Shown: in pieces, positions 18,933 through 36,206 of the stretch
How the letters are laid out: each line of letters opens with the position of its first letter
Numbering within the stretch: position 1 is the stretch's first letter
DNA from: Curvularia clavata
Taxonomy: Eukaryota
Reading direction: 5' to 3'
Assembly (NCBI GenBank): GCA_023920165.1
Contig: CP089277.1
Location: 3,348,001 to 3,412,000, forward strand
DNA length: 64,000 nt
Notes under the pieces: model-generated
What the model was told of the DNA's origin: nothing
Databases searched by the model: none
Seen by the model: only the letters and a program-made list of their open reading frames with translations
Translations under genes and position numbers: made by a program

Positions 18933-20722
18933 TTATTCCTCTGGCTCAAGATTAACGTCTGTGCCGTACTCGTCCACCACCCAAGCGCAAAACTTCTCCC
19001 ACTTACTAACCCACTCTTTCAAGCGCTGTGCGCGAATACCCTTGCCGAACATACCGTCCTTGATATCCTGCGTCCAGTCTTTTGCACTGTAGTCATCGAG
19101 ACTGGCCCAGCGTACACTATTCTCCGCTAGAGAGCCCAATCCTTCCAGCCCGAGATTCTCCCAGCCCTGAAGTGCCTGCCAAAAGTCATGCGACATGCCG
19201 GACACGCCCTGACCCAAGATGGTTGGGTCGTCGTTGCACAGCGAACATGGGACGCCGCGGGCAAGAAGCGCCGGTAATGGATGTGACATGATGCTCCCAC
19301 AGAGTCTCAACACTTCATTGGAGACCGGGCAGCTTTCCACCAGAATTCGCTTCTCTTTAACCATGTCGATTAGCAGCGGGTGCTTGTACAGACTGAAGCC
19401 GTGGCCGATGCGCCGGGTACCGAGGATGATAGCGTCGAAGAGGTTCTCGTCTACCGAGTCGCCGTCGCCAAGCGTCTCGCCCGCATGGAAGAAGAAAGGA
19501 ATGTCGACACCTTCCTGTGCGCATGCTTTGCGGAACCAGAAGAGCTCAGGTGCCATGTCCGAGAGAGAACGGCCGAGATCTTCTTGGCCGACAAGGTCGT
19601 AACCCGCGATGATTTCGGGGAATTCAATCTTCATTTCTATGCATTGCTTCATGCTCTCAATGACTTGCTTCGTGCCAAACTGCCGGATCGTAGTCCAGAT
19701 CATTCTTGCACCCCAAAACTCTTTACCTTCTTCGCTTGCTTTGAATTTTTCAATCTCATCAGCCAAGTGCTCGAGCATGTGGAACCAATCCTTGTCCCAA
19801 TCTTCCTTCCCTGCACTGCGATAAGGCGTGTAGAAAGCAGACCGCATGTCTACATAGTAGACTCCATCATCTAACAATTGCTGACACATTTTACGGATGA
19901 ACTTGCGGAAAATGGGCTCGTAGTAGATAAGTGAGCCAAGGATAGGGAAACAGGACATGAATTTTCGCCACACTTCGTTGGGGCCTTCGTGATGGGATAG
20001 GTGCTCAGAAGGAGTGATTGTGACGCGGGAACGAATCCATTCTATGAAAGCCTTCTTGCCTCCATCTGGGAAGCTGTCGGCAGCTTGGTTGACAGGTACG
20101 GGGGTGTCAGCAGTGTACTCCTTGTTCCAGATCGAGCTGTCAGTCTTGACATCCTTTGCATATGTGAATGAAAACCCAGTCTTTCGCCGTGTCTGATCGT
20201 CCACAATGGGACCCTGAGCTACTACACACACTCCTTCGGTGATGAAGGCTTCTTCAAGCGCCCAATCAAGATCAACCATGGCTTCAAGGTGACAGTGCAA
20301 CAGCGTGCCTTTGGGCATCTTTTTTACAATCTGCCATAATTTGCTCTTCTCCATGCGCTCCTTGGCAAGCGAGAACATCATACCAGGGAATACGTCGACG
20401 TGTTCGGTCAACAAACTGTCTTCATATTCCTTGGTCCACAGGGTTTGCTGCTCCTCGAATCGGATCTGGGAGACAATAGCACATGCCTCCTGTGCCATAG
20501 GCGAGAGATTCTGGCGAAACAGATAGTCTGAGAGTTGTCAGACCCAAGGGATCAGAGCGTGGGAATATCGGTATTGGTCCACAAACCGCTTCGCTGTCTC
20601 TTCTCCTGCTGCACGAGCGCATCCCTCCCCTGCAGATACTGCTGGATGAATGGATCGCTTAGGCTCGGAACACCTTCCGCCTGCGCCCACTCCTCGTCGT
20701 TTACAGGCTCTTTGGTCGCCAT
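18933..20722 (-). CDS. Adenosine deaminase, ADGF/CECR1 (ADA2) type (intron 20586-20528)
   Basis: MPKGTLLHCH, GYDLVGQED, FFFHAGET, RRIGHG, ESCPVSNE and NDDP catalytic/metal motifs. No signal peptide visible. Confidence 0.93.
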
Positions 20723-33651: not shown

Positions 33652-35168
33652 CTACACCCTGAACTTCTGGCCAGCCTCCGTCGTCGGAAAGTACTCTGGG
33701 CACCTGCCCTTGTCCTCAACCATTCTGAATTCATTGATGGTAGTCGTGTGTATCAAATGCAGCAGCGCCAGCCTAGCCGTGACACTGATACCCTGCTCTT
33801 GCAGAGTATCTGATTGTCCCATCGGCGCCGTGAAGAACAGTTCTGGTTGCACCCAGCTGCTGAAGTACTCGACCCGTTTCGTTTCGCTGTGCTTGACAAT
33901 CGATCTACCGCCCATCTGCTTGGGAGTGAAGTGAATGAACATGATTTCGTCGCTGGTTATGAGGAAGCCGTACTGCGTACTGTACTCGAGCATCCAGCGG
34001 GCTATGTTGCCTGGCAGATGGTTAGGAAGCGAGATAGTTAGGATGTGACTGGCAAGCATCTGGACAGTGAGCTTACCTAACACGCAACGTAAACTACCCT
34101 ATTCGTTGGTCGATGCTTCTTTAATTGCAAGCGTCAGAGCACCGCGTCGGCCTCCCATGTACTCGACATGGCCGATGAGTCGAGTCTCGTCCTCGCCACT
34201 GGCAGACTTTGCGCGAACAACGAATGTGGGTTTGACACCCTTTGCAGCGAGTTGCTCATTTTCCGCCGCCTTCTCGATCCATATGCCTTGCGGAACGATG
34301 TCTCCACATTCCTCAGTTATTATCGTGGTGGTAAGCAGCGTGTTGTAAATCCTCTCCACCACCTCGAGCACTTCGCGTCGAAAGTAGTCTTCTAGTTTGG
34401 CGGGACCTTGCTGGTTTTCCTCAAGTGTCTCTACCAGCTCGGTGGGACGCGGATCATCGACCTGGTAACTTTCAATCTCGTTGAATGCCGCTTGGCACCC
34501 TGGTTCTTTCCAAAACTCGATTGTTTTGTAATTGAAATATTTCCAGGAGAACAGACACCCAAGGTACCAATGCCGACGTGCATCGGCTGGTAGGAAAAGT
34601 GGCGCATCTGGATTTGTGGGAGGAAGATAGTCTGTTCGAAAGGGTTGCAGCACTGCTGCCCTGGGAGTGGTACGATTCGGGTCTGTGGAGGGGGTCAAAC
34701 GTAGGAATTCTCGCGGCGGGTCTGGTGAGGCTCTCTCTCGGATTATTGGGGACGATTCGGGTTCTGAAGACGACTCGGATTCCGAAGACGACTCGTCTGG
34801 CGGTTCCGTCTCCTCGACACTCGGCGGTTCAGCGACTGGAGAACTCGCTCTCTGCCTTCTACACAAAACGATCAAAATAAACTCTACAGCAAATACAATC
34901 TAGGGCAAGAATCATGTATGCAACCCCCATACCTCGCCTCCTCTCTAGCTTTGACAATGTCGGCAATCGTCTCTTTTCCCATATGCTCATGAAGACTCTC
35001 TGCGTGTTGCGGGTTCTAGTCGCAAATGTCGAGCAACTCGTACGCTTCATGAGCGTCCTCGATCCCGGTGGCATCCATTAATATGACGAGGCGTGCTCGC
35101 CGCTCGGGGGTCAGATCGGCCAGAAAGCGACGGTTTTCGATTGACGGGACTTCTTTTTTGGGAGGCAT
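33652..35168 (-). pseudogene. Three-exon gene (UBA-like N-terminus, degenerate PD-(D/E)xK-like C-terminus) interrupted by two in-frame TAG codons; pseudogene or RNA-edited gene
   Basis: Exons 35168-34933, 34858-34077 and 34010-33652 join in frame. The only lesions are TAG at 35018-35016 (ICD*NPQHA) and 34101-34099 (NE*GSLRCVLG). Confidence 0.7.
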
Positions 35169-36206
35169 GGTAGCGGCTGGGGATGTGTTGAGATGGGGTG
35201 ATTAACGATGGATGCATAAGTATGAAGATGCGGTGGAAGTGAGAGGAAACTGTGTATTTTATCGGTCTTGTTTGGTGCATGCGTACTTGCTTTGTAGCGG
35301 TGGCATGGAAGGCTCATCGTTGGTTCTTGCGAGGTCAGAGTTCGTCATTGCCTGGTGAGGTCTTTGCAACAGGTGCGCTGAGCAGTGAAGGCATTAAGAT
35401 ATCTCATCAAATACAGGGAAGAGGATTGAGCTACACAGTATTACAAAAACAATCACTCAACGTGAGACACCAGCGGTCGATTCGACTCACCTCTGCCAGG
35501 ACGTCTCTAAATACTCGACAAGATGCTCTCTCCAGATACAAAAACTTTGTGTACAACAAGCATATCAGTGAAGAACCGGCTTTAGAGCCTGTATGATTTC
35601 AGAAGCAGAATCTTATGTCCTAGAAAGACCACGTCGAGATGCCCAGGATACATCGCGGAAGCTTACAATACGACACACTGTAAGTTCGATTGAGCCGCGC
35701 GGTCTTACGAACGAGAATATCTTGACATCAATACGTTTATCCGTAAAAAATATAGCCCCCTCATAAATCACCAGAGTCTGGTGAAAACGAAAATAGACGA
35801 ATCAATTACATAATTTGCTTTCATGTCAGCTAAAAATGGTCCTGTCTTTTACTAGCGATTTTGAATATCAGTTACAACCGCCACGCGTTTGGAAGAACAT
35901 CCTGAAGTACTTAAAATGCTGTACAATATCTAAATTATATATAGCAAGGTAAAATGTAAGCATTTGTGGAAAGTACTAGGGTAATGAGATATACGTAAAA
36001 TGGTGTTCCAACAATCATGGAGAAGATGTGGACCCTGGATCTTCCAAGCTACGTAACCGAACCGTCCCACCTCTCACGACCTATGACACCATCGTGCCGC
36101 AGCTATCCCCGACATCTTGTTTACACAACATCATGATTTCCACACACGCGCGTCCAGCGTTCCCTGCAGTCGCCATACCCAATTCCCACCCGCCAATCTA
36201 AGCGTA

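Follow-up and report, generated by a model that had tools for sequence, protein, structure and literature searches.

A three-exon gene interrupted by two TAG codons

The 64-kb window of the Curvularia clavata genome (the whole stretch of DNA analyzed here) contains a minus-strand gene of three exons, 1377 nt or 459 codons including the terminal TAG, which has no frameshift and is interrupted in frame by TAG at codon 51 (stop 1, context GAC TAG AAC, with the A at 35017) and at codon 332 (stop 2, context GAA TAG GGT, with the A at 34100). The features of the locus are given in Table 1. A frameshift-free gene with GT-AG introns and two in-frame TAG codons had been proposed from a sequence-only reading of the window, and it is confirmed here. 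The independent DNA run X4, in which one contig spans the whole gene stretch, keeps both TAG codons, shows 7 other differences in 1851 bases and carries no further lesion in the gene; run X9, which is only guessed to be RNA, keeps both TAG codons with 3 differences. Since both codons are kept in X4 and X9, an assembly error is excluded. The coding SNPs between the window and X4 (two synonymous and two non-synonymous) are too few for inference.

Table 1. Features of the stop-bearing gene in the window
Feature	Position	Strand	Remarks
8-base element CATCGTTA	35203..35210	-	42 nt ahead of the ATG; common to distant orthologous loci
Exon 1 (codons 1-79)	34933..35168	-	carries the UBA-like domain and stop 1; colinear with the N-termini of P0093 and P0088
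UBA-like three-helix domain (codons 21-63)	34980..35108	-	structure model and Pfam UBA_4
Stop 1, in-frame TAG (codon 51)	35016..35018	-	UBA_4 tryptophan position; same in L006 and L007; kept in X4 and X9
Intron 1, 74 nt, GT-AG	34859..34932	-	predicted; placed from the sequence and annotated homologues
Exon 2	34077..34858	-	acidic/Ser-rich linker, then start of the nuclease-fold domain
Restriction-endonuclease-like (PD-(D/E)XK) fold, Spok N-terminal-like	33655..34665	-	model of P0004, structure comparison and SPOK2_N
Stop 2, in-frame TAG (codon 332)	34099..34101	-	family-wide Trp position; this species alone so far
Intron 2, 66 nt, GT-AG	34011..34076	-	predicted; CTAAC branch sites; same position in homologues
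Exon 3, including terminal TAG (33652-33654)	33652..34010	-	gene model

The annotated C. clavata protein P0003 is identical to the window protein, except that its gene model splices round both stops. The gene is single copy, since neither DNA searches nor single-protein searches of the C. clavata genome revealed a paralogue. Its RIP indices are 0.67, 1.12 and -0.45, the composite index (-0.45) being similar to that found elsewhere in the window. TAG likewise serves as the terminal stop, where the proteins of Curvularia, Bipolaris and Exserohilum finish; those of Stemphylium, Alternaria, Decorospora and Neocucurbitaria extend a few residues past it. The terminal TAG is a possible stop-loss site.

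Upstream of the gene, CATCGTTA was found 42-60 nt before the start codon in three of four loci compared (window, L003, L006 and L007), the fourth having CATCATTA, with one mismatch. The control for this 8-mer gave 75/5000, and the 64-kb window holds two copies. The element is possibly part of the promoter or 5' UTR of the gene family.

The structure model of the UBA-like domain (pLDDT 84) has helices at residues 21-34, 39-48 and 53-63, so that stop 1 falls between helices 2 and 3 and truncation there takes off helix 3. In Foldseek the top rows for this model were UBA domains, none with E<=0.001. Pfam UBA_4 matched the window protein with 13.1 bits (E 0.085), below the cut-off of 21.8, and the homologue at locus L006 with 25.5 bits (E 1.1e-5), above it. 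The UBA-like motif noticed in the sequence-only reading is thus supported by both profile and fold.

The main domain was modeled on the intact Exserohilum homologue P0004 (pLDDT 92.6). Structure comparison of this model gave the type IIG and type I HsdR endonucleases BpuSI (3s1s; Z 9.7, rmsd 3.6, 143 aligned), DrdV (7lo5; Z 8.4) and EcoR124I (2w00; Z 6.5), confirming on an intact homologue the PD-(D/E)xK-like fold that had been suspected. Foldseek against the PDB gave no match at E<=0.001 with the same model, and Pfam named nothing for the main domain among 49 family members; by language-model features the domain resembles the SPOK2_N clusters (score 0.92-0.93). The family shares the fold and the invariant Glu on the catalytic strand with the endonuclease domains, but differs from them in the other catalytic residues: of 60 sequences, 1 has the PD Asp and 0 have the Lys (positions taken from the motif, without superposition). 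Because the catalytic Asp and Lys are missing, the domain is probably a pseudo-nuclease or has an altered active site. Neither a kinase domain nor a C2H2 domain was found in the protein.

Homologue searches gave 27 and 70 matches, which were from Pleosporales wherever named, none being named from outside this order. A metagenome scan yielded 5 related loci out of 92 pattern matches, and scans of viral contigs and genome contigs yielded no relative. Searches with the exon-1 protein, which were weak (48 and 7 candidates), found only P0003 and P0100. The neighboring genes stand in the same order in the Alternaria-like locus L003 and, on the one flank covered, in L005. The order common to L003 and the window is what we take to be a ubiquitin-conjugating enzyme gene, an unknown gene, the stop-bearing gene and an MFS transporter gene. 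The window gene is a Curvularia member of a Pleosporales family that combines a UBA-like domain, a disordered linker and a Spok-like nuclease fold. The gene tags of six homologues were absent from the literature texts searched.

Conservation of the stop codons

TAG was found at the same UBA position in all three loci for which both DNA and the UBA exon were present (window, L006 and L007), and these three are the direct evidence for the site; the count omits L003 and L004, where the UBA exon is absent, and L005, which ends 146 nt before its match. L006 has TAG at codon 49 followed by 476 open codons, and L007 has TAG at codon 54 followed by 802 open codons, each with a UBA-like N-terminus in frame with the main domain. 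Aligned to the UBA_4 profile, stop 1 of the window and of L006 falls on position 27, at which P0064 carries Trp. The domains of L006 and L007 are just 34-43% identical to that of the window. In a quick tree of the domain exon alone (45 rows; P0106, which misses the motif, was left out, and P0064 was long-branched) the window fell within a Pleosporaceae clade (support 99), L007 stood beside Paraphoma, and L006 shared an 18-row clade (96) with Phaeosphaeriaceae rows.

The DNA around stop 1 has diverged among the loci. Nevertheless, L006 and L007 are the same at 5 of the 6 residues after the stop, 4 of them by different synonymous codons, a result obtained in 1 of 104,647 linker windows used as control. 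Shared residues encoded by different synonymous codons indicate that the codons behind stop 1 are selected as protein. These results show that stop 1 is ancient, spans Pleosporaceae and Phaeosphaeriaceae, and is followed by sequence under protein-level constraint. The suggestion that recent decay is as plausible as editing is hence refuted for codon 51, where TAG is conserved in distant Pleosporales.

Gene models of the family go round this site: in Exserohilum, P0088 leaves out precisely residues 33-51 of the window protein; in Bipolaris maydis, P0093 splices just ahead of site 1; and ORF calls related to L006 begin 12 codons past it. Under either editing or readthrough, the public gene models of the family are wrong at the N-terminus. 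Exceptions at site 1 are Trp in P0064 and P0102, Phe in Dothidotthia P0040 and Ser in P0100 and P0101. Alternaria panax P0018 appears stop-free, indicating that the stop is not obligatory. P0009, an off-frame ORF call on a Curvularia-like contig, keeps exon 1, and its site 1, read by hand as T-N-G, fits TAG or TGG. P0100/P0101 represent a Curvularia-like copy, and P0073 is a frame-broken piece of the domain on an equally long Logan contig (3302 bases); P0100 with P0073 is probably a decayed copy.

Stop 2 has a different history. Among 59 strict-motif records besides the query, taken from 99 protein records, the position of codon 332 is Trp in 55, Leu in 3 and Arg in 1, a set that is biased at this codon because gene callers cannot report stops. 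At the DNA level the equivalent codon is TGG in all five metagenome loci, and TAG in the two further isolates X4 and X9. The comparison of orthologous codons suggested in the sequence-only reading thus separated the two sites, giving a conserved TAG at codon 51 and TGG at codon 332. In the window protein, 3 of 44 conserved columns are altered ahead of stop 2 and 14 of 42 past it (Fisher p 0.003). Exon 3 is also diverged in a Curvularia-like relative that has Trp at codon 332 (7/24 vs 12/24, p 0.24), so that decay of exon 3 in the window copy is possible. In the same genome, inspection of 9 of the 13 listed stop-bearing matches showed decayed HET genes in which a Trp codon had become TAG three times and TGA twice. 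As Trp to TAG changes are common in decayed HET genes, TAG at a Trp position is not diagnostic, and stop 2 may be a real break. One such gene (L081, G000:C3:1838163-1838576, minus strand) has a HET domain, TAG at the motif Trp and a later frameshift, which makes it an ordinary pseudogene, and L085-L087 and L089 resemble it.

A third site was found in the Alternaria alternata-like loci L003 and L004, which are without the UBA exon and whose ATG follows the same upstream 8-mer. TAG occupies an invariant Trp position there, equivalent to window codon 176 (5229-5231 in L003, 2271-2273 in L004), in a frame without decay (deviations at conserved columns 3/43 and 0/43, respectively). None of the four NCBI models of this cluster includes the stop, 12 ORF calls have their start downstream of it, and the next Met sits within the domain. 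The Dothidotthia protein P0040, known as a gene model only, skips the same Trp. Every in-frame stop met in the family was TAG at a Trp position; by calculation, TGG to TAG would account for 7-14% of first nonsense changes arising at random.

Explanations for the conserved stop

We propose, with a probability of roughly one in two, that the UAG is repaired by A-to-I editing at some stage of the life cycle. The in-frame UAG at the UBA tryptophan would keep the single-copy gene for UBA, linker and nuclease fold off, and its reading as UGG (Trp) after A-to-I editing would switch the gene on, at one life stage that by analogy may be the sexual one, or under stress or virus infection. Once editing was present, further TGG to TAG changes, such as stop 2 and the Alternaria stop, would be tolerated. 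Editing fits best because it gives the family residue, prefers U at -1, copes with two stops and lets TGG to TAG changes persist. U at -1 is a preference of fungal editing stated in the available text of PMC11156358, and both stops, being TAG, have U at -1 of the candidate A. Recoding of the conserved premature UAG is probable and may occur by editing; the route of the bypass, its stage and its enzyme are inferred, with editing as the likeliest route. More tentatively, Pleosporales may own an A-to-I editing system, apart from the Ame1 system, that has gated this UBA plus Spok-like protein since before the split of Pleosporaceae and Phaeosphaeriaceae. The gate would be mobile, lying at the UBA Trp in most lineages, at a domain Trp in A. 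alternata and perhaps Dothidotthia, and at both kinds of site in Curvularia.

Stop-correcting editing had been suggested for both codons alike. The suggestion gained from the conservation of TAG at codon 51 in distant Pleosporales and lost at codon 332, which is TGG in the other loci and may be ordinary nonsense; the two stops differ and should not be handled as one phenomenon. Within the editing reading, it is somewhat the more probable that stop 2 is repaired too, a recent break of the C. clavata copy being the lesser but substantial chance.

The C. clavata genome contains Tad2-like and Tad3-like genes and two OTT_1508 deaminase genes. It also has two DUF726 genes, in which the MV pair was absent near the expected place, a position inferred without alignment to Ame1. 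In X9, whose three unspliced contigs (depth 2-12; RNA only by guess) are uninformative about expression and editing, no A to G change was seen at 35017 or 34100. The single T to C change of X9 inside the gene, at 34960, also occurs in the DNA run X4 and is hence a SNP. Runs X18 and X19 gave single short, near-identical pieces that stop short of both TAG codons. Hairpin context was dropped as evidence, because 4 of 5 sites were unpaired at >=0.85 versus 54% of all A as background, which is no better than background. A search for other stop-gated genes, of low power given that F. graminearum has 71 of them, revealed no second one: of 9 single-TAG kinase/WD40 matches, 8 were intronic and 1 lay at the match end, no premature stop was found in the 11 inspected of 16 listed kinase/WD40 matches with TAG, and AMA1-like and DNA-methylase matches had no stop within the match.

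Stop 1 could instead be passed by ribosomal readthrough with near-cognate Tyr, Gln or Lys, giving little full-length protein; stop 2 and the Alternaria stop would then be ordinary null alleles of lineages in which mating is rare or absent. No new editing system would be needed to account for the selection on codons past stop 1, and the UBA position is tolerant, the genome's 10 UBA_4 matches having W (5), G (4) or Y (1) there and P0040 having F; in addition, decayed genes of this genome often show Trp to TAG, and exon 3 of the window is more diverged. Known leaky contexts include UAG CAR and UGA CUA. These are absent at the stop 1 loci: TAG is followed by A or G in all three, with flanks that bear no relation to one another, and no amber-suppressor tRNA was found in 30 of 56 pattern matches (intron-less tRNAs only; below the control count). 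Readthrough also needs separate accidents that turned Trp into TAG in Curvularia and in Alternaria, each with the 7-14% chance given above, and the Alternaria frame shows no decay; we consider it unlikely. Somewhat less likely still is a locus with two products, in which translation really ends at stop 1, so that the 5' frame is a uORF of 50 residues, and an internal AUG, reached by re-initiation or on a shorter transcript, starts the nuclease-fold domain, as in zao-1C, the Curvularia copy being dead through stop 2. In favor of this arrangement, 41 of 65 records (redundant ones counted) have a Met just ahead of the domain, where many gene models begin, and an in-frame Met follows the stop by 12 codons in the window and 17 in L006. 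But the Met ahead of the domain is absent in the window, P0009 and L003, the first Met in L007 lies 72 codons on and that of A. alternata inside the domain, and there is no account of why UBA helix 3, which lies past the stop and ahead of the first Met, is conserved.

Regulated alternative splicing, with TAG as a 3' splice site or within a small intron, is what the public models assume: three annotated models bypass site 1 by splicing, and the Alternaria stop is bypassed in three. In-frame TAG codons in kinase/WD40 matches of the genome are indeed mostly intron ends, and in the available text of PMC11156358 FgBUD14 is known for stage-specific splicing around an edited stop. On the other hand, all three site 1 loci are without a CTRAY branch site before the site, whereas intron 2 has a branch site and a donor; this test is not absolute, as window intron 1 also lacks a strict CTRAY. 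No usable donor was found at site 1, the only one in the window being 28 nt away. The TAG of site 1 is therefore unlikely to be a splice acceptor, since branch site and usable donor are missing, and the models conflict with one another and delete conserved residues, the supposed intron encoding UBA helices 1-2. Splicing is thus improbable as an explanation. The least probable, by our estimate hardly credible, is an ordinary recent pseudogene with both stops as private lesions from decay or RIP. It is true that stop 2 is so far limited to C. clavata, that a decayed relative exists (P0100 with P0073) and that TGG to TAG fits CpA to TpA. However, stop 1 is common to loci with strongly diverged domains, and the recent-pseudogene reading is already refuted for stop 1 unless L006 and L007 were hit independently. 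An origin by RIP, which had been raised as an alternative, is unsupported in a single-copy gene with that composite index, of which X4 shows no further lesion.

Relation to known edited genes

In the available text of PMC7306014, PMC11156358, PMC13431901 and PMC10041177, editing is reported for Sordariomycetes and Pezizomycetes and is absent from Aspergillus nidulans and Botrytis, with pseudothecia untested, and the reviews among them (PMC7306014, PMC11156358) treat the further fungal classes that edit mRNA as an open question. In other classes, Qi et al. observed single species with a premature stop at a PSC site, editing there being "yet to be determined" (main text of PMC10776026). Dothideomycete names are absent from the text of its supplement, although its Fig. 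4 pie charts may include Dothideomycete orthologues of other genes that carry stops. Our literature search, which covered few subscription papers and no figures, found no report of mRNA editing in Dothideomycetes. The locus is real and goes beyond a private pseudogene, since its premature UAG is conserved within a family of Pleosporales genes.

The window gene resembles the PSC pseudogenes PUK1, AMD1, AMA1 and RID of the Tad2-Tad3-Ame1 system of Fusarium graminearum and Neurospora, in which, as far as PMC10776026 and PMC11156358 are available, the UAG mostly derives from TGG in an intact gene and is conserved across species, some genes have two sites, stops were repeatedly gained and lost, and models splice round the stops. 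Two sites are given for 6 of 71 PSC genes in the text portion of PMC10776026, and PUK1 has two stops in a row edited at 91% and 99% according to that of PMC11156358. The same three annotation errors as in our family were described by Zou et al. for the edited stop of CHE1 (available text of PMC11169179). Unlike these pseudogenes, which belong to Sordariomycetes and are edited in perithecial RNA, the window gene belongs to Dothideomycetes and is known from DNA, and an Ame1 with the MV pair was not recognized; the editing function of Ame1 is described as a Sordariomycete innovation in the accessible part of Feng et al. (bioRxiv 2023.10.18.562923). A UAG in an otherwise intact coding sequence and Trp in homologues at both sites were found here, with the cross-species stop and downstream constraint at site 1 only. 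The gene thus behaves like a PSC gene, but it cannot yet be filed as one before A to G is seen in mRNA.

As in OLD-ZAO and CHE1, whose UAG is corrected on virus infection or stress, one conserved premature UAG would gate the full-length protein outside the sexual stage, and OTT_1508 genes are present in the genome (available text of PMC12754623 and PMC11169179). The window protein differs from the OLD-ZAO target in having no C2H2 domain, and no deaminase adjoins the gene, which lies on contig C4, the two PF14441 matches being on C5 and C3. Eurotiomycetes, Sordariomycetes and a single basidiomycete are the groups named in the OLD-ZAO commentary, Dothideomycetes being absent from its available text (PMC12754623). 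The same source argues for PSC genes and ZAO that the product is costly outside one stage; by analogy, a ubiquitin-binding module and a nuclease fold held off by a stop suggest such a product here. The OTT_1508-like deaminase genes lie at 4900-5970 of L010 (minus strand) and 4197-5174 of L011 (plus strand), with a HET gene beside the L010 pair. The gene directly after each of them presumably encodes a MYND-like Cys motif.

Language-model features and the structure model liken the main domain to the N-terminal nuclease region of Spok spore killers (available text of PMC9972908). Unlike Spok, the family has no kinase resistance domain and no catalytic Lys, and the window gene is single copy in a conserved gene order with a UBA-like domain in front; as judged from sequence, killing or drive by this gene is unsupported by the evidence here. 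The fungal drivers rfk-1 and SKC1 are reportedly controlled by edited stop codons.

The locus turns the question of which classes edit into a one-codon test in the orthologue (model BM1_03455 / COCC4DRAFT_62065) of the crossable species B. maydis. If editing is true, the largest class of plant-associated ascomycetes has hidden stop-gated genes that annotation removes by false introns, and a Dothideomycete activator of editing is still to be found; if readthrough occurs instead, the family holds a long-conserved recoding site within a fungal protein domain. Elsewhere in the window, at 18933-20537 on the minus strand, lies an adenosine-deaminase-like gene, 13 kb from the stop-bearing gene. By its motifs we take it to be of the free-nucleoside type and not of the RNA deaminase family.
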